Positions 6,151-63,031 of a DNA stretch of 64,000 nt are shown piece after piece. The stretch covers positions 2,557 through 66,556 of the forward strand of contig JACQJR010000002.1 of assembly GCA_016204995.1 (NCBI GenBank), written 5' to 3'. The number at the start of each line of letters is the position of its first letter. Position 1 is the first letter of the stretch. The notes beneath the pieces are model-generated. The model was not told the origin of the DNA. It worked only from the letters and a program-made list of their open reading frames with translations, and did no database searches. Position numbers and translations under genes: made by a program. The DNA is from Candidatus Microgenomates bacterium (lineage in GTDB: Bacteria > Patescibacteriota > Microgenomatia > UBA8517 > JACQJR01).

Positions 6151-7333
6151 CCTAAAGTTAATTCAACTCATGGTTGTAGAAACAAGACAGCTGGACCGTC
6201 TGACTTCCCCAGGGAGACAACTCTCCATTTCCGACTTACCAGAAATAGTTGAGCAACTTTCCCCCGAAGAAAAAGAGCGCTTTAATATCCAATATGAAGC
6301 CAGAACCACCATCGGGCATTTAACTTTCCCGGAACAGATGAAAGCTAAACTTCCCCAACTATTAGGCCCCGACGTTAGTCTGGAAGAGGCCTCAAATCAA
6401 CTCCTCACCTTTATTCAAGACCGTTTCATCAAAGAAGAAGCTGTCTATAATCTTTTAAGATCACGTCGACCGCGCACCACTACCACCGAAAGTCTCTTTA
6501 AAAAGGCGATTGTTGAAAAAAAAGATGATTGTTCGTTCTGCGATCCGGAAAATAGCACTCCGGTTAATGGTTCGGCACGGATTAGAAAGGGAAAGGTCAT
6601 CTCCTCCGGCAATCTCACACCTTTTGCTGATTACCACGAACTTTTAATATTTAATCATGATCCCTATGAAATTGAATGGGAAACTTTTAGTGATATTATG
6701 GACTGCGCTATAGAAATGATTAATTATCAGTATCTAAAAGATCCCACCATAAAAAATTTTGAGCTGATTATGAATTTTGGCTTCAAAGCCGGCGCCTCTA
6801 TTCCCCATGGTCATGCTCAAGTATTGGGATTCAGGGGTAGTATGCATCGCTTCATAGTTGAGCACTATAATGCCATGGCTAATATTTACAAATCTGTCTA
6901 CCAGCAGGATTTTTGGGAAGATAAATTTAAGATACATCAGTCTTTGGGATTAGGATGGAATACGGGAGAAGATGTTTGGACTCTAGCGACCTTAACTCCT
7001 AAAAAAAATAGGGGGTTGACTATTTTTGATAACATCTCTAACAGATTTGGGGTTTCTACAGAGTTTAAAAATACTTTCTATCAATCATTAAGATTTATGT
7101 TTGACGAAGAAGCCGTAGAAGAATTTAATTTTGCTCTTCTCTTTCCACCTTTTGGACGTAATGATGACTATTGGAAAAATAGTCGTAATTTTGTTATTTT
7201 TGTAGATCGGGGTAGTTCTCGTACTCCTACTAATGATATGGGGGCGATGGAAGCGATCACCGGACTGGTAGTAGTAGAGCAGGATCCATTTCGCTGGGGA
7301 ACAAAATTAGGTAAATATCTCCAAGCGGCTTAA
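6125..7333 (+). CDS. GalT-family (HIT-superfamily branch III) nucleotidyltransferase-like protein with a low-complexity N-terminal extension
   Basis: CSFC zinc knuckle plus ...NFGFKAGASIPHGHAQVLG, comparable to the GalT FENKG..SNPHPHGQ active-site region; overlaps the upstream gene by 26 nt. Confidence 0.45.
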   Translation: MTTVNAKNNLKLIQLMVVETRQLDRLTSPGRQLSISDLPEIVEQLSPEEKERFNIQYEARTTIGHLTFPEQMKAKLPQLLGPDVSLEEASNQLLTFIQDRFIKEEAVYNLLRSRRPRTTTTESLFKKAIVEKKDDCSFCDPENSTPVNGSARIRKGKVISSGNLTPFADYHELLIFNHDPYEIEWETFSDIMDCAIEMINYQYLKDPTIKNFELIMNFGFKAGASIPHGHAQVLGFRGSMHRFIVEHYNAMANIYKSVYQQDFWEDKFKIHQSLGLGWNTGEDVWTLATLTPKKNRGLTIFDNISNRFGVSTEFKNTFYQSLRFMFDEEAVEEFNFALLFPPFGRNDDYWKNSRNFVIFVDRGSSRTPTNDMGAMEAITGLVVVEQDPFRWGTKLGKYLQAA

Positions 7334-7344
7334 TTTAACACACT

Positions 7345-8394
7345 ATGGTAACAGAAAAAATAATAGCTCGCGAAACATTTATTGATAGAATTTATGGCGA
7401 AATGGAAATTACTGATCCTTTAGCCTTGGAAATCATTGAATCACCCACCCTACAAAGATTAAAACATATTCAACAAATGGGCACTTATAATCGAGCCCTA
7501 CCGCATATTAATACCACTCGTTTTGAACACTCGCTAGGTGTTTATTATCTATTGGGCCGCTTTGGAGCAAGTCGCGAAGAACAAATTGCCGGCCTATTGC
7601 ATGATGTATCACATACAGTTTTTTCTCATGTGATGGACCATATGATTGGGGATCAGCTGGAACAAAATCACCAAGATAATATCCAACATGATTTTATATT
7701 AAATTCTGAAATTCCTCGCATAATAAGACGCCACCATGTTGATCATGAAGTAATCTTGGATGATGAGTCTTATAAATTGCTGGACCAAAAATTACCTGAT
7801 TTATGCGCCGATCGTCTGGATTATGGAATCCGCGATAGTGTGGTTTGTGGGGTAACCAACCCTGACCAAACAGCCAAATTCTTAGACCATTTACATTTTA
7901 TTGATGGAAAATGGGTCTTTGATGATGTGGATGTGGCCCGTGATTACACTGAAATGAGTATGAAAATGGCAGAAAGGTGGTGGGCTCCTGCCTGGGGAGT
8001 CTTACAATTTAAAATTATGTCAGAAGCCCTACGTTTGGGACTAGACAGCAGAATAATTACTTATTTTGATTTATTTTCTACCGATGATGAAGTCTGGAAT
8101 AAATTACAAGATTCGGGTCATGAAAAAATTGGCCAATACTTGGCTTGGATTACTAATATCCACGACATTCTCTTTGAGATCTGCGAAGAGGAGGGGGCTG
8201 ACTTTACCTTACAGTCTAAATATCGCGGAGTTGACCCCTTAGTAGATTTAAACCATCACGATCATACTGTTATAGATATGTATAAACATCATTTTGTGGC
8301 TAGAATTTCTCAACTTTTCCCTGACTTCAAAATTAAAACGGAAAGGCTCCGTCAAGCCATTGAAACACCTCACTATGTTCGCATTATTGCCTAA
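7345..8394 (+). CDS. HD-domain phosphohydrolase (COG1078 / SAMHD1-like dNTPase family)
   Basis: LQRLKHIQQMG ... RFEHSLGVYYL ... LLHDVSHTVFSH HD signature. Confidence 0.65.
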   Translation: MVTEKIIARETFIDRIYGEMEITDPLALEIIESPTLQRLKHIQQMGTYNRALPHINTTRFEHSLGVYYLLGRFGASREEQIAGLLHDVSHTVFSHVMDHMIGDQLEQNHQDNIQHDFILNSEIPRIIRRHHVDHEVILDDESYKLLDQKLPDLCADRLDYGIRDSVVCGVTNPDQTAKFLDHLHFIDGKWVFDDVDVARDYTEMSMKMAERWWAPAWGVLQFKIMSEALRLGLDSRIITYFDLFSTDDEVWNKLQDSGHEKIGQYLAWITNIHDILFEICEEEGADFTLQSKYRGVDPLVDLNHHDHTVIDMYKHHFVARISQLFPDFKIKTERLRQAIETPHYVRIIA

Positions 8395-13097: not shown

Positions 13098-13993
13098 AGT
13101 CTTCTCCTATATCTTACCCTGCCACCGAACCATTTAATTTCGCCGGAGTTGACGTACAAAATTACAGCTCGGCACGGGTGGCCGTTTTTCCAGTTCCCTA
13201 CAGTTCTACCACTTATTGGAAGTCCACTACCAAAGAAGGTCCAAGAAGTATTATTGAATCGTCGCGCCATATGGAATTGTGGGATGAAGAATTAGGCAAA
13301 GACACTTCGCAAGTTGGCATTTACACCATGCCGGAACTGGAAGTTTCTAAAAATTCTCCCCTGGAGACAACACAGCGAATTGAAAAAGTAGTAGCCAGCT
13401 TACTTAAAGATAAAAAATTGCCTTTAATGTTAGGCGGGGAACATTCTATTACTTTGGGAGCAGTCATGGCTTGTGCTAAAAAATATCCGGCTAGCCAGCT
13501 GTCTGTTTTACAACTTGATGCCCATACTGACTCGCGCTCGGAATTTGAAGGCACCAAATATCATCATGGTTGCACCATGCGCCGAGTGGTAGAGGATTTA
13601 AAAGCCTCGGTAACACATGTGGGAATTCGTTCCACTAGTGAAGAAGAGCAAAGTTTTTTGAAAAAGTCCAAAAAAAATCATGTTTTTTATGCCCCTGCCT
13701 GCGCAGGCAGGCCCGATATACCAGTTGAAGAAATTATCGCCACTTTGGCAAAAAACGTTTATATCACCATTGATTTGGATGTGTTAGATCTGGGAATTAT
13801 GCCGGCAGTCGGCACCCCAGAACCAGGCGGCATTGGTTGGTATGAAACTTTAAACTTAATAAAAAATGTGGCAAAAGAGAGAAATATTGTCGGTTTTGAT
13901 ATTGTGGAATTGGCACCCATTCCTGGCATGGAAGGACCAAATTTTCTGGCCGCCAAACTGGCTTACAAAATATTAGGTTACATTTTTAGCTGA
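13094..13993 (+). CDS. speB: Agmatinase / ureohydrolase (arginase family)
   Basis: LGGEHSIT, LQLDAHTDSR, ITIDLDVLD and GFDIVELAP manganese-site motifs. Confidence 0.8.
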   Translation: MKSSPISYPATEPFNFAGVDVQNYSSARVAVFPVPYSSTTYWKSTTKEGPRSIIESSRHMELWDEELGKDTSQVGIYTMPELEVSKNSPLETTQRIEKVVASLLKDKKLPLMLGGEHSITLGAVMACAKKYPASQLSVLQLDAHTDSRSEFEGTKYHHGCTMRRVVEDLKASVTHVGIRSTSEEEQSFLKKSKKNHVFYAPACAGRPDIPVEEIIATLAKNVYITIDLDVLDLGIMPAVGTPEPGGIGWYETLNLIKNVAKERNIVGFDIVELAPIPGMEGPNFLAAKLAYKILGYIFS

Positions 13994-14313: not shown

Positions 14314-14919
14314 TTATCTCTTAGCGACAGCCCTTATTACACCTATTGCCTTTATAGAATCCATCCAACGTTCCTCTGGTTTCATAATTTTTCCCTGTTG
14401 ATCATAGTTGAAATATGGCATCATTATTGTTGGTTTAACATTCCGAAATCCTCTTCTTACTAACACTCCCTTATAAACATCTATTTCATCTGTTAATTCG
14501 TTATGTGATGAACGATCTATGAAAGAAATTGCATCTGGAGGACCAAGTAAACCACCTACTTCATTCTGTCCCCATGCATGAGGACGCCAAATTTTAATAG
14601 TATTTATATTTACCGCTCTAATAATATATTCTGCTCTTTCATGATATCCTAAAAAATGCACTAAAGTCCCTGGTTCTAAAGCGTGTAAATCAATAAATCC
14701 TACTGGTTCTATTCTTTCTAAAGGTAAATTAGGAGTTTGTTCATTGATAGGATCTGCTCTCCAAACATCAATAGGTCCTCCCCCCTTCCTCATCCACTCT
14801 CTTTCTTTTTCTCTTGTAACTCTGCTCTTAATCATATCCCAGGTGGGCCTTTCAATCATCCGCTGACTTGGCTTGGCCGCTTCTGAAGAAATTTGAGGTT
14901 GTTCTGTATTTTCGTCCAT
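14314..14919 (-). CDS. Hypothetical protein (201 aa, Cys-free); function not recognised
   Basis: Lone minus-strand ORF between plus-strand operons; visibly more AT-rich than its neighbours. Confidence 0.3.
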   Translation of the reverse strand: MDENTEQPQISSEAAKPSQRMIERPTWDMIKSRVTREKEREWMRKGGGPIDVWRADPINEQTPNLPLERIEPVGFIDLHALEPGTLVHFLGYHERAEYIIRAVNINTIKIWRPHAWGQNEVGGLLGPPDAISFIDRSSHNELTDEIDVYKGVLVRRGFRNVKPTIMMPYFNYDQQGKIMKPEERWMDSIKAIGVIRAVAKR

Positions 14920-14962: not shown

Positions 14963-16198
14963 ATGTCAAATAATTTAAAAGATCATCGTCAGATTGGTCA
15001 GGAGCAAGAAATATTTTTTACTAATGATATCGCCCCCGGCGCTCCTTTTTGGCTACCGCGTGGCATGATTATTTTTAAGGAACTGGAAAAATATATCAGA
15101 GAATTAACTGAAAAAGCCGGCTACCAGGAAACCTCTACTCCGATTATGGTTAAAAGCGAACTGTTTAAACAATCCGGCCATTGGGAGAAATTCGGAGAAC
15201 ATAACATGTACAATCTACAGCTTTCCGATGAGGAAAATGACAATCAAGCTGTTTCTTACTCTTTAAAACCAATGAATTGTCCGGAATCAACTGTCATTTA
15301 TCGTTTCCGGCCCAGGAGTTATAAAGAATTACCTTTAAGACTTGCAGAAATTGGAAGGCTTCATCGCCGGGAAAAATCAGGTGAGGTAAATGGCTTACTA
15401 CGAGTCCGTCAGTTAACGATGGATGATGCTCATATCTATGTCGCAGAAGAGCAAATTTTTGAAGAAATAGGAAATATTTTATATATGATGATGACTTTTT
15501 ACGAAAATTTTGGTTTTGAGTATGAATTTAGACTAGCCACTAGACCAGAAAAAAGGGCTGGAACTGATCAAATGTGGGATAAAGCAGAAAATGCTTTAAA
15601 AGAAGCTTTGATAAGAAAAGGGATTCAAGCGGGAGATAAACTAGGGGATGGAGCCTTCTACGGTCCTAAAATTGACTTGCATATTAAAGATAGCCAAGGC
15701 AGAGAATGGCAACTGGCCACAGTCCAATTAGATTTTCATCAACCAGAAGCTTTTAAGCTGGAATATATTGATGGGGATGGTCAAAAACAACAGCCAGTCA
15801 TGATCCACCGGGCCATTTTCGGCTCCTTCGAAAGATTTTTAGGTATTTTAATGGAACATTTTCAAGGCGCTTTTCCCTTATGGCTGTCACCAGTTCAAAC
15901 CATGGTAATTCCCATCACTGATAAAAATATAGATTACGCCAATCAAGTTTTTAATCAATTGAAAGAGGCTAATATCCGAGTGGAATTAGACGACCGGTCA
16001 GAAACTATGCAAGCACGCGTCCGTGATGCTGAATTGCAAAAAGTTCCATATATAATAGTAGTGGGAGAAAAGGAAGAAAAAGACCATAATATTTCTATTA
16101 GAACCAGAGGTCAAAAAGAAATCCGTCAGGACGAAACAGAAAGTTTTGTGGAACAAATCAGGAAGAATATTGAAAAAAGAAGCACTAAACTGGTATAA
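14963..16198 (+). CDS. thrS: Threonyl-tRNA synthetase, catalytic and anticodon-binding domains only (no N-terminal TGS/editing domains)
   Basis: DHRQIGQEQEIFF ... APGAPFWLPRGM ... class II motifs and C-terminal anticodon-binding domain; 411 aa against roughly 640 for canonical ThrRS. Confidence 0.85.
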   Translation: MSNNLKDHRQIGQEQEIFFTNDIAPGAPFWLPRGMIIFKELEKYIRELTEKAGYQETSTPIMVKSELFKQSGHWEKFGEHNMYNLQLSDEENDNQAVSYSLKPMNCPESTVIYRFRPRSYKELPLRLAEIGRLHRREKSGEVNGLLRVRQLTMDDAHIYVAEEQIFEEIGNILYMMMTFYENFGFEYEFRLATRPEKRAGTDQMWDKAENALKEALIRKGIQAGDKLGDGAFYGPKIDLHIKDSQGREWQLATVQLDFHQPEAFKLEYIDGDGQKQQPVMIHRAIFGSFERFLGILMEHFQGAFPLWLSPVQTMVIPITDKNIDYANQVFNQLKEANIRVELDDRSETMQARVRDAELQKVPYIIVVGEKEEKDHNISIRTRGQKEIRQDETESFVEQIRKNIEKRSTKLV

Positions 16199-36803: not shown

Positions 36804-37319
36804 TTATTTATTCCTTAACTGGACTTGGGAGGAAACGTTAGCAGTGGCTTTTTCTCGGGCGTCGGTGGTGGTGCCGCTTTGAGTTAGCGTAAAAGAAATA
36901 TTAACTACATTAAGAGAAGAATTACAGCTAAATTGACAAGCTGACACATTAACTGCCGAAGTAGTTAGCCTGGCTCCGTTAGAAGCAATATAGGCATCAT
37001 CGGCTGGCGTCATCTGACAATTAAAACGGCCGGGTTGGCCATAAAAATCCAAATAATCAATCAAAGTGGCACTACAATTAGTAATAGAAGTGGCATTCCG
37101 AAAATGACGCTCCATTACCTCCAAAGCATAATCAGCTTCCTGTCGCACAGCTTGAGTTACCTCCACCTTACGTTTGTTAATAAAAATGGTGGAAATAGAT
37201 TGGGTGGCAAAAAGGGCAATTACCACAAACAGCGAAAGTCCCACCAAAAGTTCAATAAGAGTGAATCCCAATGTAGAATTGAGAATGTATAATTTATAAT
37301 TTCTGAATTTTTTATACAT
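36804..37319 (-). CDS. Type IV pilin-like protein (prepilin; leader MYKKFRNYKLYILNSTLG|FTLIELL)
   Basis: G|FTLIELLVG class III signal with E5 and a hydrophobic alpha1 helix. Confidence 0.55.
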   Translation of the reverse strand: MYKKFRNYKLYILNSTLGFTLIELLVGLSLFVVIALFATQSISTIFINKRKVEVTQAVRQEADYALEVMERHFRNATSITNCSATLIDYLDFYGQPGRFNCQMTPADDAYIASNGARLTTSAVNVSACQFSCNSSLNVVNISFTLTQSGTTTDAREKATANVSSQVQLRNK

Positions 37320-37343
37320 TATAAATTGTAAATTTTACATTAA

Positions 37344-37787
37344 TTAATATTTTGTAAATTTAGAACTTAATTTAGTTTCATGCGTCCCCTTACTATCCGC
37401 CCAGAACACCCGCACTTCGGCATCAATTTCACTGTCAGATACTGTTGTTAATTTAATCTCCCGCGCCAGCAAACTACTGGAGATACAGCTACCACCGGTG
37501 GCCGGCCAGGCCAGAGGAGTAGGGAAAGGCGGCGCCGAAAAACACCAGGTGCCGGTTTTCCCTGCAAAATTATCCCAATTAGCGTTTCTGGTCGCTCTCA
37601 AAAACTCCATCACCGCCGTCGCATCCCGATTGGCATTACTTTGAGTTTGAGAAAAAGAAACATTAGAAATAGAAGTTGTGGTTAAATTAATTAAAGCTAA
37701 AACTATAATAGCCGCCACCCCCAAAGCCGCAATCAGCTCTACCAAGGTGAAGCCTTTATTTAGCATTTGGCATTTAGCATTTGGCAT
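37344..37787 (-). CDS. Type IV pilin-like protein (leader MPNAKCQMLNKG|FTLVEL)
   Basis: Class III signal peptide; leader encoded by two tandem 14-mers. Confidence 0.55.
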   Translation of the reverse strand: MPNAKCQMLNKGFTLVELIAALGVAAIIVLALINLTTTSISNVSFSQTQSNANRDATAVMEFLRATRNANWDNFAGKTGTWCFSAPPFPTPLAWPATGGSCISSSLLAREIKLTTVSDSEIDAEVRVFWADSKGTHETKLSSKFTKY

Positions 37788-37792
37788 TTTTT

Positions 37793-38299
37793 TTACTCTA
37801 TCTTTCCCGCCTTGGTAACAATAATAGTGGCAGTTTTTTCAGTTGCAGTTTGAAGAAAAGTAAAAGTGGCATCTTCTGCCCCCAGCGCCAGCACTTTAAA
37901 TAAGATAGAAACCGGCCCGGCGTTTTTGGTAATACCAAAGGGAATGTTAACTGTTTTTTCAGTGGCATCATCTGTGGCGCAATCGGCAATTACATCATAG
38001 CTGGTACTTGTAAAATTTATCTTCCAACCCACTAAATCCCCAGTACAACCGCTTGGTTTTTCGCCACTTGCCGCTTTTTGTTGAGCCAGCTGCAAATCGC
38101 TTTTAATTAGCCTGACTGCTTCTGATAATTGCTGCCGACTGTTAAAATCCCGATAAGAGGCATAACCAATTAATGACACAGTCACGATAATAGAAATCAC
38201 TGCCAACAGCTCAATGAGGGTAAAACCAAATGTAGAATTGAGAATGTATAATTTAGAATCAGGAAATTTCCGAAAAATTGTAAATTGTAAATTTTGCAT
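37793..38299 (-). CDS. Type IV pilin-like protein (leader MQNLQFTIFRKFPDSKLYILNSTFG|FTLIELL)
   Basis: Class III signal peptide with E5. Confidence 0.55.
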   Translation of the reverse strand: MQNLQFTIFRKFPDSKLYILNSTFGFTLIELLAVISIIVTVSLIGYASYRDFNSRQQLSEAVRLIKSDLQLAQQKAASGEKPSGCTGDLVGWKINFTSTSYDVIADCATDDATEKTVNIPFGITKNAGPVSILFKVLALGAEDATFTFLQTATEKTATIIVTKAGKIE

Positions 38300-38309
38300 T
38301 ATACATTAC

Positions 38310-38783
38310 TTAAGGATTTGTGACTTTGTAGTTACAAGTCAATGTGCAGTCACTACCACAGCCAGACACGCTGCTGCCGCCAGTTTCCAGATAGGCGCAT
38401 AAAGCATAAGTAGTACCATTTGAACTATAAGAATATTTAGAAGTGGGATTTTGCGGATCCTGTGGCACCCCATCTATATAAATATTGGTTGTGGCACAAG
38501 AGGCAGGCGTGCCATCACCTTTAAGCTGGGCTGTGGAACCAAAACTAAGGCTGGTTGGGTAATCACCGCAATCAGCTCTATAAAGATCCAAACCGGAGGC
38601 AATTTTACCCAAATCTCCTTTGCGCTGGGTATCCCGACCTTGCCCCCGCACACCACCCAGGGCGGAAAGTGAAATACCCATAATCACTCCGATGATAGAT
38701 AACACTACTAAAAGCTCAATCAAGGTGAAACCGTGCGAGGCGCGGAATTTTGTAAATTGTAAATTGTAAATTGTAAATTTCAT
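38310..38783 (-). CDS. Type IV pilin-like protein (leader MKFTIYNLQFTKFRASHG|FTLIELL)
   Basis: Start set at the internal ATG at 38781-38783 so that it abuts the stop of the upstream pilin; Cys-rich C-terminal domain. Confidence 0.55.
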   Translation of the reverse strand: MKFTIYNLQFTKFRASHGFTLIELLVVLSIIGVIMGISLSALGGVRGQGRDTQRKGDLGKIASGLDLYRADCGDYPTSLSFGSTAQLKGDGTPASCATTNIYIDGVPQDPQNPTSKYSYSSNGTTYALCAYLETGGSSVSGCGSDCTLTCNYKVTNP

Positions 38784-38785
38784 AC

Positions 38786-39277
38786 CTATATTGGACAATT
38801 GCCCCCACTTTCTTGCCAATTACTGGGTAAACTGCCTTTGCCGCTTTTACCGGTGGAGCACACAAACCAATACTTATTAGCCTCACCCTCTAGCTTGGCG
38901 TATAAATAGTATTTGGTGGCCGTCGCCCCTCCCGAACCATTAGAGTTATAGCGATAATATAAAGTACTGGTGCTATCGGTAGTAGAACTGAGGTCCTCTA
39001 AACATCCGCCTGGTAAATAATTGTTTGGCGTGGTTAAAGCACTACAAAGAGAAGAAATGTCACCGCGATTAACTAATAGTAGAGAAGGGTATAAATTATT
39101 GTTGCCATTGGCATAGGCTTCCACCGCTTTGCGATACTCACTTAAGTCCGATCTTCTTTGTACATCCCTGACCTGTTTTTGAGCAGCGGGATAAACATTC
39201 AAACCAATAGTGGCCAGCACCCCCATAATGCCGATGACCACCAATAGTTCAATAAGAGTGAAGCCTTTTAAGTGCAT
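38786..39277 (-). CDS. Type IV pilin (short canonical leader MHLKG|FTLIELL)
   Basis: Canonical prepilin N-terminus and a C-terminal Cys pair. Confidence 0.65.
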   Translation of the reverse strand: MHLKGFTLIELLVVIGIMGVLATIGLNVYPAAQKQVRDVQRRSDLSEYRKAVEAYANGNNNLYPSLLLVNRGDISSLCSALTTPNNYLPGGCLEDLSSTTDSTSTLYYRYNSNGSGGATATKYYLYAKLEGEANKYWFVCSTGKSGKGSLPSNWQESGGNCPI

Positions 39278-39765
39278 AAGTCGCTTTTAGCTCCGCTGGG
39301 CCCAAAATGCAACTTCCAGAAATTTTTACCCCCGCTGGAACCTGAACTGTGGTAATTCCTGTCCGTCGCTGGTACCTCCCTTTCTAAACGAATCTCTAAA
39401 CAATAATCCTGGCCGTCAGATATATATTGGTAATAATATGGTTCTGTATTTTTAGGATCAGTAGGAACGGCGCTGCCGGGAAGATAAGAACTAAGTCCGC
39501 CTATCCAAGTCGCGCCGGCAATACTGTTACACCAAGAGGTGCATTGAGAACCGATATCTCCAGTTTGCCCGGCATATCTATTTTTATCGGTATAAAATTG
39601 CTGTAAGGCGGCCACTATTTTTCGCCCGTCGTCAATTCGTTGGCTATCACGAGCCTTAGCTAAGGCCCCAGGGAAAGTGTTAATACCCACTGTGGCCAAA
39701 ACGCCCATAATGGCAATGACGACCAGCAGCTCAATTAAGGTAAAACCAGGCAGTATTTTTTTCAT
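39268..39765 (-). CDS. Type IV pilin (leader MKKILPG|FTLIELL)
   Basis: Canonical prepilin N-terminus; candidate major pilin. Confidence 0.65.
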   Translation of the reverse strand: MKKILPGFTLIELLVVIAIMGVLATVGINTFPGALAKARDSQRIDDGRKIVAALQQFYTDKNRYAGQTGDIGSQCTSWCNSIAGATWIGGLSSYLPGSAVPTDPKNTEPYYYQYISDGQDYCLEIRLEREVPATDRNYHSSGSSGGKNFWKLHFGPSGAKSDLCT

Positions 39766-39769
39766 TTTG

Positions 39770-40327
39770 TTACTCCACTTTTAAAAGTTTTTTAACCGGC
39801 TTAATACTTGATGTAATCCCATAATTGCATATTTCCCGACCGCATGCAAGTTGCCATTTTTCAATCTCGGAACTTCTGGCTGGGTCCTGCATCCGTACTA
39901 AATGGGCGAAAATTTGAATATCATAGCCATCTGACAGGTAATAAAAAGAATTGCCCTGTCCTTGGCGGGGATCAAGAGGAATGGGATCAAGGTAGGGCGG
40001 GTAAGTGGGATCGCGCAAATCTACCAGTTTATCAAAACCCCACTCGCACGGCCGAAGATTTTTGGGGTCGCCGCAAGCTAAAATTTTACCATCCTGACTT
40101 CGGGGAAACTTATTAAAATCTTTCTGATATTTTTCCAAAGCATGGACGACGGCACTGGCATTAGCTTTTCTTTGTTCATCTTGAGATTTAACCTTAGAAT
40201 CCTGGAAGTTAAACAAAGCCACCAGTAAAATGGCTATGATAATTCCACAAACTCCCAGAAACTCCGGCAAAGTCATGCCGGAATTAATTGAAAATTGAGA
40301 ATTGAAAATTGAAAATTTATTCACCAA
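39770..40327 (-). CDS. Pilin-like protein (leader (M)VNKFSIFNSQFSINSG|MTLPEFL; TTG/GTG start)
   Basis: G|MTLPE with E5 retained, hydrophobic helix, C-terminal Cys pair. Confidence 0.5.
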   Translation of the reverse strand: MVNKFSIFNSQFSINSGMTLPEFLGVCGIIIAILLVALFNFQDSKVKSQDEQRKANASAVVHALEKYQKDFNKFPRSQDGKILACGDPKNLRPCEWGFDKLVDLRDPTYPPYLDPIPLDPRQGQGNSFYYLSDGYDIQIFAHLVRMQDPARSSEIEKWQLACGREICNYGITSSIKPVKKLLKVE

Positions 40328-40331
40328 TTCA

Positions 40332-41081
40332 TTATAGTCCTACTAACTTACTAATTTCTCCCCCAAAAAGCATCGTCAAAATCGTCCCGATTATCAAAAA
40401 CGGCCCAAAGGGGATCGGCTTGCCAAAATGGGCGCGCTTTACTGCAACCAGTGCTAATCCCACCATCGCCCCCGAAATAAAAGCTACAAAAAAAGCCAAA
40501 TAAGTATTAACTCCTAAAATTAACCCCATCGCAAAGGCCAACTTGACATCTCCCAAACCCATGCCGCGGCCTAAAGTAACCCAATTAACTAGCAGCAAAA
40601 ATAGAGCGGACATGCTGGCCCAGAAGAAATTAATAGAAATCGCAGAAGGAGCAAATAAAATTAAAAATATTAAGTTAAGAGTTAAAAGTGGAAAAAGCAA
40701 CACGTCCGGAATAATCATTTTTTCTATATCCACTACCGCAATGGCGATTAACAAAGTAGCTGTAAGCAACATTATTCCCAAATACCAACCATCATCCCAA
40801 AATTTTAAACCTATGAGTAAAAATACCACTCCTGTCGTAATCTCCAAAAGGGGATAGCGGAGGGAAATTTTTTTATGACACTGGCGGCATCTACCATGCA
40901 AAATCGCATATGAGAGTAGAGGAATATTGTCATACCAGGAAATTTGCTGATGACATTTAGGACAAGCGCTTCTACGCCATAAGTTTTTCCAGGAAAACTT
41001 CGGTTTTGCTACTTCATAAGTCAACGAAGATAAAAAAGAACCAATGACTAACCCCAGTAGAAAAAAAATCAATCCCGCCAT
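40332..41081 (-). CDS. pilD: Prepilin peptidase (A24 family)
   Basis: N-terminal tetra-Cys zinc motif CPKCHQQ ... CRQCHKK; polytopic membrane protein with catalytic Asp region. Confidence 0.8.
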   Translation of the reverse strand: MAGLIFFLLGLVIGSFLSSLTYEVAKPKFSWKNLWRRSACPKCHQQISWYDNIPLLSYAILHGRCRQCHKKISLRYPLLEITTGVVFLLIGLKFWDDGWYLGIMLLTATLLIAIAVVDIEKMIIPDVLLFPLLTLNLIFLILFAPSAISINFFWASMSALFLLLVNWVTLGRGMGLGDVKLAFAMGLILGVNTYLAFFVAFISGAMVGLALVAVKRAHFGKPIPFGPFLIIGTILTMLFGGEISKLVGL

Positions 41082-41096
41082 TAATTCATTGTAGCA

Positions 41097-41624
41097 TTAA
41101 AGCGCGAAGTCTTGCGGACCGGCAACAGGTGGTTGGCAAACTATACCGGATCTATTATCAGCTGACGACCAGACAAAGAAAGTTTGATCAACAGCTGCAG
41201 GCAGGCATCTGGCTCGTTCGGCTTTAGATTCCATTTTGGCATAGACAATCATAAATCTATCAAGCTTAAATCCTTCCCGCGGAACAACACTTTCTCTACT
41301 GCTTTCCGCAAAGCAAAATCCCTGGTCACTGACGGCATCTTGGGCGCACAGTGGCGAATAACCCGGCGAGGATGGATTTTTAACCGGCAAGTCTAATACC
41401 TCTGCCTCCTGTAAAGTCTTGATAAAGCTACCTGCTGGATATACCTTATTTTTTTGGTAAAACTTAGCTAAAGCACCGCCCAGGGCATTAATAGAATCTT
41501 TCCGCTCCGCATCCAACTTCTTTCTATTCTGCTCCGCCGGATCAATCGCCAAGTACGCCGTTATTCCCAAAATAACTACTAACACTATCGCCGCTAACCA
41601 CTCTAATCCTGCTTTCCATCTCAT
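41097..41624 (-). CDS. Pilin-domain protein without a canonical prepilin cleavage motif (pseudopilin-like paralogue)
   Basis: N-terminal TM MRWKAGLEWLAAIVLVVILG. The body (AIDPAEQNRKKLDAERKDSINALGGALAKFY) is homologous to the neighbouring pilin's ALDPAEQLARTRDSSRVTSISDLGKATAAYY. Confidence 0.4.
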   Translation of the reverse strand: MRWKAGLEWLAAIVLVVILGITAYLAIDPAEQNRKKLDAERKDSINALGGALAKFYQKNKVYPAGSFIKTLQEAEVLDLPVKNPSSPGYSPLCAQDAVSDQGFCFAESSRESVVPREGFKLDRFMIVYAKMESKAERARCLPAAVDQTFFVWSSADNRSGIVCQPPVAGPQDFAL

Positions 41625-41642
41625 GCCTACATTATATTACCT

Positions 41643-42200
41643 TTAGGGAATAAATGATAAAGCAAATGGTAACCCTGGCTCTGAACAAGTCACACCAGCT
41701 CTATTTTGGCTAGCTGCCCAAACAAAATATCTAACTCTATTAGCAACAGGTGTACCAGAATCATTACAAAATGTCGTACCCTTACTCTTCTGTGATTTTG
41801 ATTCTAACTTAGCATAAACCACTGCATCGCCGTTACCAGAGCTTGACATATTGTAACAAAAGTTGTTTTGGTTAAAACCCACAGTACAACCAGCATCGCC
41901 GCTGGAATAAGATTGGTTAGTTGGACCTGTCTTAAGTTCTCCTGCATTAATTAGGGTGGTAATCCAAGTAGTATCTGCTGTCGGATAGGCACTTTGATTT
42001 ACATAATAAGCTGCTGTAGCTTTTCCTAAATCACTAATACTGGTAACCCTAGAACTATCGCGAGTACGAGCCAGCTGTTCAGCTGGATCAAGAGCCACCA
42101 ATACCGCTGCCGTTAACACACCCAATACCGCAATCACAATCAAAAGTTCAATTAAGGTAAAACCTCGCTTAATTTTCAATTGTAAATTATCAATTCTCAA
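41643..42200 (-). CDS. Type IV pilin (leader (M)RIDNLQLKIKRG|FTLIELL)
   Basis: Class III signal; C-terminal Cys pair. Confidence 0.6.
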   Translation of the reverse strand: MRIDNLQLKIKRGFTLIELLIVIAVLGVLTAAVLVALDPAEQLARTRDSSRVTSISDLGKATAAYYVNQSAYPTADTTWITTLINAGELKTGPTNQSYSSGDAGCTVGFNQNNFCYNMSSSGNGDAVVYAKLESKSQKSKGTTFCNDSGTPVANRVRYFVWAASQNRAGVTCSEPGLPFALSFIP

Positions 42201-42245
42201 TTATCTGTTCACCTCCTTTTGTTATCTAATTTCATCATGACTTAT

Positions 42246-43448
42246 TTAAAATTGGCTTGTCAAGTTGTAAATGGGCAAAATAATGGCAATCACGAGAATT
42301 CCTACTCCTAAACCTAACACTACCATCACGATGGGCTCAATAGCCGAGGTTAGCGCTTTCACCTGCTGTTCTGAATCCTGTTCGTAAATATGGGAAGTTT
42401 TTTCCAGAATTTCATTTAATTTACCTGTTTCTTCGCCCACGGCGATCATTCTGGTCATCATCGGCGGAAAAGCCTGCGGCTGCTGGCCTAAAGCCCAAGC
42501 TAAAGGAAATCCTTTTTCCACGTCACGGGTGGCCGTTCTAACGCCGGAAGCTAAAATTTCATTACCAACAATTCGCGACACCACCCCCAGCGATTCTAAA
42601 ATAGAGACGCCCGCTCCCACCAGTAGCCCTAAAGTCCGGGTAAATTCCGTCAGCATAATCTGCCGATTCAACGGCCCCATAATAGGAACTTTGAGCATAA
42701 AACCATCCCAGGCTCGTTTGCCCACCGGAGTTTTGCGAAACATCCCCAAACCCCAAATCAGAATAATTATCGCCATCGCCATCAAATACCAAAATTTGGT
42801 CATAAAATGCGACACATTGATTAAAGCGACAGTCACTCCCGGCAGTTTGGCATTAAACTCCTCATAAATTTTAGCCAGCTTGGGCACCACAAAAACCATC
42901 ATCACTGTCACCACCGCCGCCATACCGATAATCACAATCATAGGATAGATGAGGGCGCCTTTCACTTTAGACCGAAACTCCCGCTCTTTTTCCAAATTAT
43001 CAGCCAGCCGGGCCAAAACGGTATCCAAAAGACCGCCGGTTTCCGCCGCCCGCACCAGAGCAATGTAAACTGGCGAAAAAACTTGGGGGTGCTTTTCCAA
43101 GGCCGCCGCCAGCGACGAACCTCCCTCAATATCCATTAAGAGATTGCCGGCAATTTGCGACATGTGTCCGGCCGATTGAGTCCGCAAAATTGATAAAGAC
43201 TCGGTGATAGTGACGCCGGCTGAAATCATGGTGGAAAACTGGCGGGTGAAAGTAGCTACTTCCGAGAGATTGACTTTGCCGCGGAAATTTTTAAGGCCTT
43301 CTAACAGATTTAATCCCGATTCAATTTTGATGACAATTAAACCCTTTTCTCGCAAGACCCGGGCGGCAGCCTCGGCACTGGCAGCTTCCACTTTGCCGAC
43401 CATTTTCTTGCCTTCGGGGTTTCTAGCTTGATAATTAAATTGGCGCAT
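42246..43448 (-). CDS. pilC: Type IV pilus platform protein PilC (GspF family)
   Basis: Two GspF repeats, 3 TM segments, 400 aa. Confidence 0.8.
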   Translation of the reverse strand: MRQFNYQARNPEGKKMVGKVEAASAEAAARVLREKGLIVIKIESGLNLLEGLKNFRGKVNLSEVATFTRQFSTMISAGVTITESLSILRTQSAGHMSQIAGNLLMDIEGGSSLAAALEKHPQVFSPVYIALVRAAETGGLLDTVLARLADNLEKEREFRSKVKGALIYPMIVIIGMAAVVTVMMVFVVPKLAKIYEEFNAKLPGVTVALINVSHFMTKFWYLMAMAIIILIWGLGMFRKTPVGKRAWDGFMLKVPIMGPLNRQIMLTEFTRTLGLLVGAGVSILESLGVVSRIVGNEILASGVRTATRDVEKGFPLAWALGQQPQAFPPMMTRMIAVGEETGKLNEILEKTSHIYEQDSEQQVKALTSAIEPIVMVVLGLGVGILVIAIILPIYNLTSQF

Positions 43449-43453
43449 AAGTT

Positions 43454-44512
43454 TTAAGCCTTGATTAATCTGGTTAAATCTTCGCTGTGGAGCGAGTAAC
43501 TTTGGGCAATTTCCAGAGTGATTTTACCTTCCTTGACCAATTTGGCCAAAGTTGTTTCCAGGCTAATCATGCCGACTTCGCCGGAAGTCTGAATAATAGA
43601 ATCTATCTGATGGGTCTTGCCTTCGCGGACCACCGTCTGAATGGCTGGCGTCCCCAACATCACCTCATAAGCCAGCACCCGTCGGCCATCAATACCCGGC
43701 AGTAAACGTTGGGAAAAAACCCCTTCCAAAACCGAAGACAGCTGTAATTTAATCTGCTCCTGCTGTTCGCGCGGGAAAACATCCACGATCCGATCAATGG
43801 TCTGGGCGGCAGAATTAGTGTGAAGAGTCGCAAAAACTAGATGCCCGGTTTCAGCGATGGTCAAAGCCGAGGAGATAGTCTCCAAGTCCCGCATCTCGCC
43901 CACTAAAACCACGTTAGGATCTTCCCGCAAAACCGATCGTAGAGAAATTCCCCAAGAATGGGTATCCAAAGTCATCTCCCGTTGGGTGATAATTGATTTT
44001 TCCGGCTTAAAAATGAATTCAATAGGGTCTTCAATGGTCACAATATGCTCGGCCCGCTCCTTGTTAATTTCGTTTAAAATGGCAGCCAGAGTGGTAGATT
44101 TGCCATGTCCGGTCGGGCCGGTGACTAGAACAAAACCTTGACGTAAAGTGGCAAAGTTATGACAGATAGAAGGCAAGCCCAGACTATCAATATCGGGAAT
44201 AATGAGAGGCAGGCGGCGAAAAGAAGCGGCCGGCGTGCCGCGTTGAAAATAAGCATTCACCCGGAAGCGAGCCTTTTCCGAAAAAGACAGCGAAAAATCC
44301 AGTTCTTTGTTGACAAAAAAACGCTCGGCCTGTTCGGCGGCCATCACCTGCCGCAGATTTTTTTCTATCTCTTCGGCTGTGATAGGGGACTCGTTCTGAA
44401 CCGGATAAAGCACCCCTTCCACTCGTAAAGTCGGGGGCAAACCCACAATTAAATGAAGGTCTGAAGCGTTACGATCAACTGTTAATTGCAATAATTGTTT
44501 TATCTCCATCAT
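43454..44512 (-). CDS. pilT: Twitching-motility retraction ATPase PilT
   Basis: Walker A GPTGHGKST; Asp box, Walker B and His box of PilT/GspE ATPases; 352 aa. Confidence 0.8.
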   Translation of the reverse strand: MMEIKQLLQLTVDRNASDLHLIVGLPPTLRVEGVLYPVQNESPITAEEIEKNLRQVMAAEQAERFFVNKELDFSLSFSEKARFRVNAYFQRGTPAASFRRLPLIIPDIDSLGLPSICHNFATLRQGFVLVTGPTGHGKSTTLAAILNEINKERAEHIVTIEDPIEFIFKPEKSIITQREMTLDTHSWGISLRSVLREDPNVVLVGEMRDLETISSALTIAETGHLVFATLHTNSAAQTIDRIVDVFPREQQEQIKLQLSSVLEGVFSQRLLPGIDGRRVLAYEVMLGTPAIQTVVREGKTHQIDSIIQTSGEVGMISLETTLAKLVKEGKITLEIAQSYSLHSEDLTRLIKA

Positions 44513-46245
44513 TCTTCTGCTACCCGCAGAACTTCTTCAATCGTCGTTATTCCTTCCACTGCCTTTAAGTATCCATCTTGCTTCATGGTCACCATACCTT
44601 CTTCAATGGCCTGTTTTTGAATTTCCGAAGCAGGCGAGCGCTCCAGAATCAACCGACCGACTTTTTCCGAGACCGGTATTACTTCAAACAATCCCACCCT
44701 GCCAAAATAACCGGTCATGTTACATTCGCTATCTCCTTTGCCGCGAAACAACTCCACCTTTTTATCCGCGGGCAAAAGTTTTCCTAACACTTTTTGAATA
44801 TCGGCCGCAATTGGTTTATCCGGCTCAAACGACTCTTTACAAACTGTGTGAATTTTACGAACCACCCGTTGGGCAAGTATTGCCGTAATGGAAGAAGCCA
44901 GAAGGAATGGCTCGGCACCCATATCTAATAGACGAGGCAGGGCACCGGAGGCGTCATTGGTATGCAATGTCGCAAAAACCAAGTGGCCGGTCAGTGATGC
45001 TTGGATAGCCAGATCGGCCGTTTCGTGATCGCGAATTTCTCCCACCATAATGATATTGGGATCCTGACGCAAAAAAGAGCGTAAACCAGAAGCAAAAGTA
45101 AGTCCTGCGTCCGGATTAACCTGGACTTGATTAATACCGGTAATTTGGTATTCCACCGGATCTTCCAGGGTAACAATATTAACTTTGGGGGTGTTAATCC
45201 TGTTTAAAACTGAATAAAGAGTGGTGGTTTTACCCGAGCCGGTCGGACCGCAGACCAAAATAATGCCGTGCGGTCGCAAAATGGCATCCTCCAGATTTTT
45301 TAAAGCTCGGCCGCGCACTCCCAATTCCGGCAAATCCGGCACCCCGCCGGTTTTTTTCAGAAGTCTCATGACCACTTTTTCCCCATGCACCGTCGGCAGG
45401 GTGGAAATCCGCAAATCCACCTCTTCGGCGCCGGTCTTAAAACTCATCCGGCCGTCCTGCGGCGCCCTTTTTTCATCAATCTTCATACCGGAAAGAATTT
45501 TGATGCGGGATACCAGCGAATCATGCACCTCCCGTGGCAAAGTCAGTTTTTCATGCAGAATTCCGTCAATCCGATAACGAACACGGGTTCTTTTTTCTTC
45601 CGATTCAATATGAATATCCGAAGCTCGCGACTTAACAGCAAATTCCAAAAGGTTGGTGACAATTTTAGCGATTGGCTCTTCCCGAATCACTTGCCCCAAA
45701 GCCCGGACATCGTAAGAACCACTACTTTGAGGCGCCGCCTCTTTGACCGCCTGGCTGACTTCGGTTGAGAGACTACTAGAGTAGCGCTCATTGATTGCTT
45801 TTGTAAGCTGTGAAGGGGCGACGGCCACGACTTTAACTTTATAGCCGGTCCGCTGCTCCGCAAATTCCACGGCCGGCACATCCAAGGGATTGGCCATGGC
45901 CAAAGTCAGTTCACGCCTGGCCTCATCTATTGACACCGGCAAGACCAAAAAACGGCTGGCTACTGCCTGGGGCACTAAAGCCAAAACTTGAGGGTTAGTG
46001 GGAATGTCGGAAATCTCCAGATATGGAATATTGTAAAGAGCGGCTTTAGCTCGGGTAATGGCTGCCTCGCTGGCTAAAGAACGTTGGCTTAAAATTTCTT
46101 CGGGGTTTTGCCCGGTCTGGACTACGGCCAGCTTGACTGCTTCGGCGGCCTTAATATCAAGATCTTTATTGGCCACTAAAATATCGATTAAATTCGGCCC
46201 CGATCCAACCGTGGTCGGCGCAGTGGCAGAGGCAGTGTTGGGCAT
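44509..46245 (-). CDS. pilB: Type IV pilus assembly ATPase PilB (GspE family)
   Basis: N-terminal GSPII domain, Walker A GPTGSGKTT and a tetra-Cys motif; 578 aa. Confidence 0.8.
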   Translation of the reverse strand: MPNTASATAPTTVGSGPNLIDILVANKDLDIKAAEAVKLAVVQTGQNPEEILSQRSLASEAAITRAKAALYNIPYLEISDIPTNPQVLALVPQAVASRFLVLPVSIDEARRELTLAMANPLDVPAVEFAEQRTGYKVKVVAVAPSQLTKAINERYSSSLSTEVSQAVKEAAPQSSGSYDVRALGQVIREEPIAKIVTNLLEFAVKSRASDIHIESEEKRTRVRYRIDGILHEKLTLPREVHDSLVSRIKILSGMKIDEKRAPQDGRMSFKTGAEEVDLRISTLPTVHGEKVVMRLLKKTGGVPDLPELGVRGRALKNLEDAILRPHGIILVCGPTGSGKTTTLYSVLNRINTPKVNIVTLEDPVEYQITGINQVQVNPDAGLTFASGLRSFLRQDPNIIMVGEIRDHETADLAIQASLTGHLVFATLHTNDASGALPRLLDMGAEPFLLASSITAILAQRVVRKIHTVCKESFEPDKPIAADIQKVLGKLLPADKKVELFRGKGDSECNMTGYFGRVGLFEVIPVSEKVGRLILERSPASEIQKQAIEEGMVTMKQDGYLKAVEGITTIEEVLRVAEE

Positions 46246-46288
46246 AGTTCCATTATGTCGTAATTCTTGTTAAAATGTCAATAAAAAC

Positions 46289-46375
46289 ATCTCAAATCTT
46301 AGATCTCAAAACTCAAAACCAAAACGAAAAGATTTAAGATATGGATTTGACATTTGAGATTTACGTTTTGAGTTA
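46289..46375. promoter_or_regulatory. Extended imperfect palindrome in the divergent pilB/holB intergenic region (candidate operator/promoter)
   Basis: ATCTCAAATCTTAGATCTCAAAACTCAAAAC ... ATTTGAGATTTACGTTTTGAGTT; the two arms are reverse complements (AACTCAAAAC/GTTTTGAGTT, ATCTCAAAT/ATTTGAGAT). Confidence 0.4.
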
Positions 46376-62252: not shown

Positions 62253-62512
62253 CGTTCCAGTTTAAAAACAAAAGATAATTTTTGTCAAATGAAAAATTTT
62301 ACGAAAGTTTGGTTAGGGGAGAGAAGTAGGCACAGCTGGCTAGATTATTCGTCTTTTGTTCGGAAAGGACTTTTTAGACATAGATAACAAAAAGAGAGAA
62401 AAATAGAACAGTAAACAGTTTGCATTATTAATTATAAATTGTAAATTATACATTGAGTGCTTTAAGACACGCTCTTCTCTGGCAAATTGGTTTGACGTCG
62501 CAAAAGTATTAT

Positions 62513-62939
62513 TGTGCGACCTACTATGATTTTGTTCCCTGTTGTGGATGGACACGCTATAATAAGCAGAGCTTGTTACTCGTCCACTATGTGGACTTCG
62601 TAATAGCCCCTACAACGCCCTTTTGGGGAGTGAGACGACTACTTGTATATCCCGAATTATCTGACTAATCTCTATCTTAACGACTTCTGCCTTAAAAAAC
62701 GTTAGTGCCACCGGGCCTTCGGGTTTTGTAAGAAAGGGATGTTGAAAAATTATCCACATAGAGCCCCGAAGGGGTGGCGTCGCCATATCAGACTGTATCA
62801 TTTGAAGCTAATTATTCTTACTGGCAGGAGCCAGGAGAAGCGCTAGGCTCAAAGCTGGTTTAGCACCGGCCTGTCTAATCTGCGTGAAAATTTAACCGCT
62901 TTTTCGTGAAAACTCCCTATGGCACTATAGGTCGCACAA
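62513..62939. other. Noncoding structured region bounded by a 12-bp perfect inverted repeat (candidate ncRNA or MITE-like element)
   Basis: TTGTGCGACCTA (62513-62524) and TAGGTCGCACAA (62928-62939). Internal hairpin GCCACCGGGCCTTCGGG ... CCCCGAAGGGGTGGCG (62707-62779). No ORF longer than 71 aa, and GC is above typical intergenic levels. Confidence 0.25.
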
Positions 62940-63031
62940 CTAAACTTGTCCTTCATTCTATCCTCTCCCCTTTCTCGCCAGTAGTCTGAAAAATTTTCTA
63001 ATCTCTAAGCTCTAGCATCTAAGTTCTAGCC

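Follow-up and report, generated by a model that had tools for sequence, protein, structure and literature searches.

Heptanucleotide tandem repeats in prepilin leaders of a Candidatus Microgenomates type IV pilus operon and across genomes of the candidate phyla radiation

In the type IV pilus operon of a Candidatus Microgenomates bacterium, found within a 64,000-nt stretch of contig JACQJR010000002.1 (hereafter the window), six pilin genes carry tandem arrays of 7-nt units at their 5′ ends, and heptanucleotide repeats of this kind are a lineage-wide feature of genomes of the candidate phyla radiation (CPR). The explanation that we prefer, while rating it a little short of an even chance, is that the arrays are microsatellites born of slippage and tolerated in the prepilin leader, which is cleaved off, and that they form no dedicated switch, any effects on expression being incidental. 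Pilins of the window are named by their first coordinate, and loci (Lnnn) and proteins (Pnnnn) carry the labels of our comparison set.

Tandem Repeats Finder (TRF), with which we called the arrays of the window, returned period-7 arrays at every site where the initial annotation had noticed repeats. At least six array-bearing genes had been counted there among eight pilins; the six stand, but the pilin-like genes number nine. All of the pilin-gene arrays lie on the coding (minus) strand, in genes with the Pfam N_methyl motif; the region is the distal half of the minus-strand operon. The arrays and related stretches are given below, all from TRF, with further evidence in brackets.

38750-38779, minus strand: (AATTTAC)x4.3 with 100% matches, beginning 2 nt past ATG 38783 of pilin 38310
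40286-40317, minus strand: AATTTTC AATTTTC AATTCTC AATTTTC, 4.6 units at 92%, in the leader of pilin 39770-40324
42171-42205, minus strand: AATTGAT AATTTAC AATTGAA AATTAAG, 5.0 copies at 78%, degenerate, at the 5′ end of pilin 41643-42200
37758-37789, minus strand: (AAATGCY)x4.6 at 88%, alternatively a perfect 14-mer x2.3, at the start of pilin 37344-37787
38275-38293, minus strand: (AATTTAC)x2.7 with 100% matches, beginning 4 nt past ATG 38299 of minor pilin 37793-38299
38229-38259, minus strand: AAATTAT ACATTCT CAATTCT ACATT, a second 7-periodic stretch of the 37793 leader
37270-37343, minus strand: 5′ module of pilin 36804-37319 (also alignment)
62424-62454, minus strand: AATGTAT AATTTAC AATTTAT AATTAAT, non-coding, with no adjoining pilin
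5634-5665, plus strand: AATGTCC AATGTCA AATTTCC AATTTCC, in frame within the DUF763 gene 5029-6150 (also Pfam)
46285-46365, minus strand: GTTTTGA/GATTTGA and AAATCTC/AAATGTC units that flank a promoter-like site before pilB (TRF call at 46305-46325)

The perfect four-copy tract described initially is the array of pilin 38310, and it is the sole perfect array with at least four units, the rest being degenerate or no longer than 2.7 units. It encodes FTIYNLQFT within an 18-aa leader, MKFTIYNLQFTKFRASHG; the gene (38310-38783) is GspG-like, with Pfam N_methyl and T2SSG matches, and an identical 157-aa product recorded at NCBI (P0001, Candidatus Microgenomates bacterium) starts at ATG 38783. The leader of pilin 39770 is MNKFSIFNSQFSINSG, followed by MTLPEFL, and the corresponding NCBI product of 184 aa (P0137) starts at GTG 40324. 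In pilin 37344, the array presents four ATGs spaced 7 nt apart, of which those at 37787 and 37766 are in frame, confirming that its 14-mers supply two in-frame starts. The second stretch of the 37793 leader holds a block common to 36804 and terminates at the G-1 codon. Within the 5′ module of 36804, TRF places period-7 arrays at 37284-37302 and 37312-37342: the units AATGTAA AATTTAC AATTTAT (37320-37343) lie upstream of ATG 37319, and the leader itself, MYKKFRNYKLYILNSTLG, contains AAATTAT-type units and the shared block (37270-37295). As had been pointed out, AATT heptads also occur outside pilin coding sequence, both before the 36804 ATG and at 62424-62454, and the latter array matches 37321-37343 at 24 of 25 positions. 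The in-frame array of the DUF763 gene extends this class of repeats beyond the pilins. A two-unit AATTTAC probe (AATTTACAATTTAC), allowed up to 2 mismatches, finds 13 matches in the window against 2.2 expected, a number reached in none of 100 shuffles.

Counted with G-1 included, the leaders measure 18 aa in 38310, 25 in 37793, 18 in 36804, 16 in 39770 (from GTG 40324), 13 or 6 in 41643 and 12 or 5 in 37344, so that array-bearing leaders span 12-25 aa rather than the 18-30 aa first reported. The shorter values arise because 41643 has a second in-frame start, TTG at 42179, that yields the leader MKIKRG, and because in both 41643 and 37344 the second start lies past most of the array and gives an ordinary leader of 5-6 aa. 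The view that the arrays code for leaders holds for at least 38310, 37793, 36804 and 39770; it is qualified by the AATTTAY array of 36804, which precedes the ATG, and by the later starts of 37344 and 41643.

These proteins have the features of type IV prepilins with class III signal peptides. The Pfam N_methyl motif (PF07963) is present in seven pilin genes, with the Gly end, hydrophobic N-terminus and Glu+5 expected of them; pilin 39770 reads G↓MTLPEF, and its homologues, with G↓FT..E, are true prepilins. The nine pilin-like genes also share their operon with the genes for the prepilin peptidase and the assembly proteins, as identified from open reading frames (ORFs) and Pfam matches:

36804-46245, minus strand: type IV pilus operon (ORFs, Pfam and related CPR loci)
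44509-46245, minus strand: pilB (ORFs, Pfam)
43454-44512, minus strand: pilT (ORFs, Pfam)
42246-43448, minus strand: pilC (ORFs, Pfam)
40332-41081, minus strand: prepilin peptidase PilD (Pfam A24_N_bact and Peptidase_A24, alignment)

No heptamer array was found in this PilD gene. Upstream of pilin 41643 are an AGGAGG and a promoter-like TTGACA-18-CATGAT, and a similar promoter-like TTGACA-18-CATAAT precedes pilB.

To place these arrays in a wider setting, we surveyed the window together with 160 CPR pilus loci fetched via PilC (2.32 Mb), counting distinct arrays of at least 4 units. Period 7 accounts for 63 of them, whereas periods 5, 6, 8, 9, 10, 11 and 12 account for 9, 19, 8, 2, 0, 0 and 1, respectively, and shuffles that preserve local composition yield 0-1 period-7 arrays. 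With their 7-nt direct repeats joined head to tail, their excess at period 7 and their copy numbers that differ between close strains, they belong to the class of heptanucleotide simple sequence repeats (SSRs); the strain differences are those of L169/L170-L177 and L051/L157/L160, not of the window's own arrays. The units are AT-rich, often AATT-phased and dependent on the lineage (AATTTCA, CAACTTT, AATTCTC, AATCCCT, AGTAATC and others). Twenty-two arrays lie upstream of genes (15 non-pilin, 7 pilin), and 15 of these end within 11 nt of the start codon. Eight lie inside pilin leaders. Another 23 are in frame in coding sequence of other kinds, among them LigA, GyrB, PolA, an aminoacyl-tRNA synthetase and two PilD loops of variable length; the remainder are intergenic. 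All eight leader arrays consist of stop-free units, although to argue from this to translation is partly circular, since stop-free arrays are absorbed into ORFs by gene calling.

Among relatives, arrays have been gained and lost relative to orthologues with short leaders, and strains differ by in-frame lengths. The commonest leaders of the 119 homologues of pilin 38310 are 4-7 aa long and of the MRKG type; long ones are scattered among them, several of which carry cyclic permutations of one repeat peptide (MKKFSIYNLQFTRNG, MKKIYNLQFTIYNSKKG, MTVKISNFKFQISNFG), and arrays are absent from the nearest homologues, at 57-60% identity. Because orthologous pilins mostly have leaders of 4-7 aa, the arrays represent lineage-specific expansions. 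Leaders range over 3-13 aa in homologues of 39770 and over 3-57 aa (median 11) in the 37793 family, and in the 90%-identity cluster of P0033 they are 7, 16 and 53 aa long, having been replaced outright. One cluster of pilins at least 90% identical presents three states at a single site: L169 has ATGAAAAAA plus (ATTTACA)x4, that is, four AATTTAC units; seven contigs from six samples have one AATTTAC unit; and L174 has (AATTTTC)x4, every unit having changed in concert. The difference between L169 and the one-unit contigs is three units and in frame. (P0131, which begins MIELL and was considered as an out-of-frame allele, is merely an alternative gene call on the DNA of the one-unit allele.) In two Falkowbacteria loci that are 99.2% identical, AATCCCT is present in 7 units (L051/L157) or 4 (L160), 7 nt before a response-regulator gene. 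L183, a syntenic relative of the window at 47-50% protein identity, carries (AATTTAC)3.3 in its 37793 orthologue, at the same place as in the window, together with (ATTCTTA)3.6, and (AAGTGCA)4.3 in its 37344 orthologue, again at the place of the window's array; its contig ends inside an array of at least four TTTTCAC units before the next gene.

Heptamers are not the only source of change here, and CPR pilin 5′ ends are unusually plastic, with heptamers, hairpin insertions and tandem duplications producing leaders of 3 to more than 50 aa. In L183, a module of ~65-70 nt (ATGTTAAGCARAGCTTGGCCCTTCGGGCTAAATT... plus A-rich heptads) opens two different pilin genes (356-420 and 1893-1960), and its hairpin part recurs, reversed, within a third leader (868-885). 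Strains of Collierbacteria with ~90-95% DNA identity differ by GC-rich, hairpin-type insertions of 21-51 nt (for example ATTGCCAC...CGCAATGACG) that lie in frame in pilin leaders and turn an MKG-type leader into one of 15-20 aa (L008 at ~13217, 13657 and 14528 versus L101/L125; L021 at 7459 versus L116; L106 at 11274 versus L110); the same type of element is found in intergenic DNA. Among homologues of 38310, the leaders of P0049, P0050, P0067, P0054, P0063 and P0101 hold an extra, upstream copy of the cleavage-site segment (MKKGFTLIRTLL...QQG↓FTLIELL); here a tandem duplication of the pilin N-terminus (KGFTLI) has given rise to a pseudo-cleavage site. Both AATTTAC and AATTGAA also resemble pieces of the DNA that codes for FTLIE (TTTAC..., TTAATTGAA), which all pilins conserve as GGT TTT ACC TTA ATT GAA. 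Purely as an idea, this FTLIE-coding DNA, e.g. that of 41643-42200, may seed one and the same repeat recurrently in unrelated pilins.

In the mechanism that we favour, replication slippage would make and homogenise arrays in AT-rich DNA near gene starts; we infer slippage because AATTTAC has changed to AATTTTC in concert and because whole units have been inserted or deleted. Arrays would then survive where the sequence matters little, namely in the bases before start codons, in variable loops and chiefly in the prepilin leader, which PilD removes past a conserved Gly. In 38310, 37793, 36804 and 39770, the ribosome reads through the arrays to give long leaders rich in N, Q, F, I, Y, T and K. 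The arrays that persist would be those with stop-free units and with copy numbers that hold the start codon in frame.

Repeats of this class have been described elsewhere. According to later accounts of Mrazek 2007 (PMC4679880, PMC4692102), heptamers are the most abundant class of long SSRs in many prokaryotes, and polymerase slippage has been proposed as their origin. Like the CPR arrays, the heptamer SSRs of cyanobacteria, of Xanthomonas (GGGAATC) and of Nostoc (GGGGAYT) are direct repeats of few copies, over-represented relative to other lengths, mostly intergenic, variable in length between strains and attributed to slippage (PMC4692102). The CPR arrays differ in that a large share of them is coding (leaders and PilD loops) and translated, and in that their units are AT-rich and AATT-phased, not G-rich. 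The closest match in placement is provided by the TAACTGA repeats of marine Beggiatoaceae, some Cyanobacteria and Bacteroidetes, a heptamer in 2-6 copies that lies mostly a few nt before start codons in genomes where Shine-Dalgarno sequences are rare; occasional copies within ORFs fall at the periphery of the protein, and a part in translational regulation has been proposed (PMC4679880). TAACTGA differs in being one genome-wide unit with stops in all forward frames, while in CPR the unit depends on locus and lineage and, in leaders, is stop-free; in Beggiatoaceae it has no link to pili.

Several observations weigh against tolerance as the full account. PilD contains 11 arrays in 77 distinct genes, or 17.7 per 100 kb, 15-fold over other genes (Poisson P 5e-10); these may stem from 6-7 independent events and fall in two variable loops; the density of coding arrays is 3.8 per 100 kb in pilins (3-fold) and 1.2 in other genes, and PilB, PilC and PilT have none in 480 kb. 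Arrays at gene starts are likewise enriched in pilins (13/412 versus 15/1641, 3.5-fold, P 0.0014), and remain so when this window is left out (2.65-fold, P 0.02). Tolerance by itself does not account for why pilin leaders and the enzyme that cleaves them should be so favoured, and this is the unexplained part of the pattern. Moreover, AATTTAC directly past the ATG recurs in orthologues of 39% (L169) and 48-52% (L183) identity, consecutive minor-pilin genes start with heptamer arrays in both the window and L183, and the DNA of the module shared by 36804 and 37793 is more conserved than the FTLIELL codons next to it. Finally, in Logan contigs from four samples, which are 100% identical to the window apart from their breaks, all seven contig ends that adjoin arrays stop inside the two arrays of at least four units (40288-40314 and 38751-38778). 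Such findings leave room for a function of the arrays, be it as a switch or as a cis-acting module.

Could the arrays instead be contingency loci, as the initial annotation proposed? Slipped-strand changes in unit number would then toggle the frame of a pilin (elsewhere that of pilD), or grade expression where an array precedes the start, and a population would at all times contain cells that differ in pilus composition; we consider this fairly unlikely. The gene that lends itself to it is 38310, in which a repeat whose unit is not a multiple of 3 lies within the reading frame, after the sole ATG and ahead of the mature pilin: in our frame model, 1, 4 or 7 units keep the ATG in frame, 2, 5 or 8 leave no start, and 3, 6 or 9 leave nothing but a distant GTG. 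In 38310, a one-unit change would thus break the frame, in line with the earlier statement on copy number; in 37344 and 41643, a downstream in-frame start would make expression indifferent to copy number. Also in keeping with switching, the arrays cluster, like contingency tracts, in genes for a surface structure and its processing enzyme, they are kept at orthologous sites while their units change in concert, as if repetitiveness itself were retained, strains differ in copy number, and there is precedent in the heptamer tracts that control the HMW adhesins of Haemophilus influenzae. That precedent, (ATCTTTC)n of hmw1A/hmw2A, is a 7-nt unit beside an adhesion gene in which slippage alters copy number and expression, but its tracts have 11-38 units, lie in the 5′ untranslated region, pair with a G-rich partner into a hairpin that RNase III processes, and are demonstrably hypervariable (PMC12721329; PMC2651432). 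CPR arrays, by comparison, have 3-5 units, mostly interrupted, and no partner sequence. Non-triplet repeats are also known from the Neisseria opa genes, where (CTCTT)n lies in the part that codes for the cleaved signal and its copy number sets the frame while the mature protein is unaffected, and Neisseria pilC has a poly-G tract; the opa tracts, however, have ~7-28 units, switch at high frequency and lie in a Sec signal peptide, whereas those of CPR lie in a class III prepilin leader. In the window, no tract is of a hypermutable kind, since the longest perfect run has 4.3 units and all but one of the six arrays are degenerate, against at least 8-11 units in proven heptamer phase-variation tracts (PMC12721329, PMC2651432), at least 11 in hmw and 8-14 in other H. 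influenzae heptamer tracts. Out-of-frame alleles number 0 among 442 distinct CPR pilin genes and 0 among 77 PilD genes, in consensus assemblies where minority alleles are invisible. In a Woesebacteria orthologue (P0031; L181, 401-450), whose sequence variants number 11 on dozens of contigs, the five perfect AAATTTC units and the leader they encode are unchanged in 10; the length differences that we do see are multiples of three units; and similar arrays occur in the essential genes LigA, GyrB and PolA. Overall, the initial interpretation is partly supported, in that the arrays are real, the frame of 38310 depends on copy number and the array of 37344 holds two in-frame ATGs; five of the six arrays are short or degenerate, and use as an on/off switch is possible, although the consensus data do not support it.

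The Logan contigs bear on the same question, as it is exactly at the two longest arrays that those of all four samples end. The window's organism was recovered solely in these contigs: our scans of GTDB genomes and Joint Genome Institute (JGI) metagenomes with the window's PilC gave best matches of 51-54% identity at most (the nearest relatives being Collierbacteria, Woesebacteria and other Microgenomates/Patescibacteria), and thus no relative above 54% for direct comparison of copy number. The opposite ends of the contigs that break in arrays vary by sample, shorter arrays are spanned, and the DUF763 array is crossed unbroken in 3 samples; because of the breaks, no full-length allele across either of the two longest arrays is on record among Logan contigs. 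As neither broken array contains a repeated 30-mer, a second sequence must exist in the reads, and in simulations the breaks fall within 1-4 nt of those predicted for co-occurring longer alleles, which would have 5 units or more at array 1 (38750-38779) or an extra 21 nt at array 2 (40286-40317). The break of array 1 at 38751 is, however, also the exact position predicted if a lineage with an L169-like (AATTTAC)4 orthologue that shares one 31-mer occurs alongside, which weakens the breaks as evidence of heterogeneity and keeps them from proving variation within the population. They are suggestive of variation at the level of the population and are not proof of it.

Another alternative is that the AATT-phased heptads act in cis, as a putative protein-binding DNA operator, a site for an RNA regulator or part of a promoter or initiation region, much as the initial annotation had suggested in speaking of a portable DNA-level module; we think this unlikely. 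The portability stands: an array may precede the ATG (36804; L034, L027, L035, L064), follow it (38310, 37793) or sit at a non-pilin site (62424-62454), which argues for an element at the level of nucleic acid rather than peptide. What does not fit a single module is the unit, which varies widely by lineage (AATTTCA, CAACTTT, AATCCCT, AGTAATC) and changes in concert between close strains. A cis-acting role would accord with the conservation of the shared module's DNA beyond that of its neighbouring codons, with the recurrence of one unit at one position in distant orthologues, with the L183 module (ATG, hairpin and A-rich heptads) before two pilins, and with the upstream arrays that end close to starts in the manner of the Beggiatoaceae TAACTGA repeats. 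TATAAT boxes near starts are common and Shine-Dalgarno sites few. Of 62 window genes of at least 100 aa, 21 have a TATAAT-like box (a match of at least 5/6) with its end 3-13 nt, in most cases 6-9 nt, upstream of the start codon (examples are 2999, 9587, 23595, 33922, 47069, 53825 and pilD at 40332-41081), and Shine-Dalgarno-like sites precede only 13 of 55 window genes, a pattern suggestive of frequent leaderless or near-leaderless transcripts. If many mRNAs are leaderless, an operator would need a place at or inside the gene start, and the dispensable pilin leader would give it room. The repeat can even be read as a promoter, (AATTTAC)n containing TTTACA-17 nt-TACAAT, and L034 has TGTACA-17-TACAAT-6 nt-ATG; among the 22 upstream arrays, units resembling a -35 box are in excess (5 versus 1.1 expected, P 0.004), but units resembling a -10 box are not (2 versus 3.7 expected). 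Given the latter, and as no start codon follows the 38310 array, we set the repeat lattice aside as a general promoter and keep it as a minor idea on account of the -35-like units. Also against a cis-acting role are the loop arrays of LigA, GyrB and PolA, which have no obvious regulatory sense, the lack of any array in the nearest 38310 homologues, and the fact that no candidate binding protein and no ribbon-helix-helix gene was found, the proteins of the window not having been scanned exhaustively for such a regulator. That a 7-bp register can act as a protein-binding lattice is known from the omega repressor of plasmid pSM19035, a regulator of the ribbon-helix-helix type for which WATCACW is repeated 7-10 times near promoters and each 7-bp unit is bound by one dimer of a small protein, but the CPR unit, unlike those operators, varies in sequence across lineages.

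The arrays and blocks might also give neighbouring pilin genes short stretches of homology through which gene conversion or deletion could take place, by which 5′ ends would be swapped or a new body placed behind a start, and this we judge very improbable. The block common to 36804 and 37793 (AAATTATACATTCTCAATTCTACATT), noticed from the outset, is exact at 37270-37295 and 38229-38254 (0 expected); it belongs to a gapless alignment of the two 5′ regions over ~100 nt, with a 27-nt identical run that ends at the G-1 codon, and the next eight codons (FTLIELL) differ at 7 synonymous sites. An identity of 26-27 nt that stops at G-1 between diverged flanking codons resembles a conversion tract; AATTTAC direct repeats stand in one orientation at 38750, 38275 and 37321; and L183 has another module common to two of its pilin genes. 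Nevertheless, the homologies are just 19-30 nt long, no recombinant or deleted arrangement was found among Logan contigs or related loci, and, as the two proteins are 34% identical and true paralogues, the block can also be explained by shared ancestry together with constraint.

Four other candidates were set aside. An unstructured initiation region was not borne out by folding of -30..+60 about the start codons, as structure is not lowered relative to shuffles (z of -2.45 to +0.57 in genes with arrays, +0.1 to +1.9 in genes without). For a DNA-uptake-type motif, AATTTAC occurs 35 times against 21 expected, but the excess consists of the arrays themselves. Both results also count against a cis-acting role. 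A leader motif at the level of peptide is contradicted by the unrelated peptides encoded (FTIYNLQ, FSIFNSQ, ISNFKFQ, STFNFQL) and by arrays that are not translated. Finally, no Rfam family matches at the arrays of the window or in the non-coding ~62460-63030, which disposes of known RNA families there.

That non-coding region (62460-63030, minus strand) comprises ~570 nt without an ORF above 71 aa, between a DUF5656 gene and the 62424-62454 array; beside it is a hydrophobic ORF of 26 aa whose ATG (62425) lies 5 nt past a TATAAT box. At 46285-46365, where pilB and a holB-like gene diverge, the promoter region contains two 7-periodic stretches with related units in opposite orientation. Elsewhere in the survey, PilD arrays lie in L035 (12460-12494), L050 (12891-12932), L053 (9155-9222), L055 (12145-12181), L068 (11084-11117), L130 (12347-12384), L132 (12258-12299), L033 (4210-4252), L140 (8090-8128) and L166 (9877-9910), that of L132 being built of AATTTAC and encoding FNLQFTIYNL. 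L140 carries AGTAATC/AGTAATT at four sites in 4 kb (4780-4880, 6253-6313, 6977-7015 and 8090-8128), with up to 14 copies before pilC, ~8 before a pilin and the reverse complement within PilD; one unit at several sites is hard to reconcile with random slippage alone. L032 (Patescibacteria) has six heptamer arrays in 12 kb (13795-13829, 13849-13887, 14781-14808, 15345-15372, 15782-15820 and 4437-4470), among which (CATTTGA)4 presents a perfect TTGACA box each 7 nt, just before a pilin with a (CAACTTT)4 leader.

What is new here is a host group, the CPR, and a location, the leader, for a known class of repeat, and in that sense the novelty is modest. Within the pilus loci, pilin leaders and the peptidase that cleaves them off are where such repeats are densest. 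In practical terms, start-codon and signal-peptide prediction for CPR pilin genes is unreliable, and short-read assemblies break at such arrays. Host attachment and DNA acquisition in CPR/Patescibacteria are believed to depend centrally on type IV pili. That CPR keep frameshift-prone heptamer tracts in prepilin leaders and PilD in order to switch or tune pilus composition, heritably and reversibly, seems to us quite improbable. If it were true, a radiation that is uncultivated and non-pathogenic would possess a contingency-locus system, lodged in the one portion of the pilin that processing throws away.

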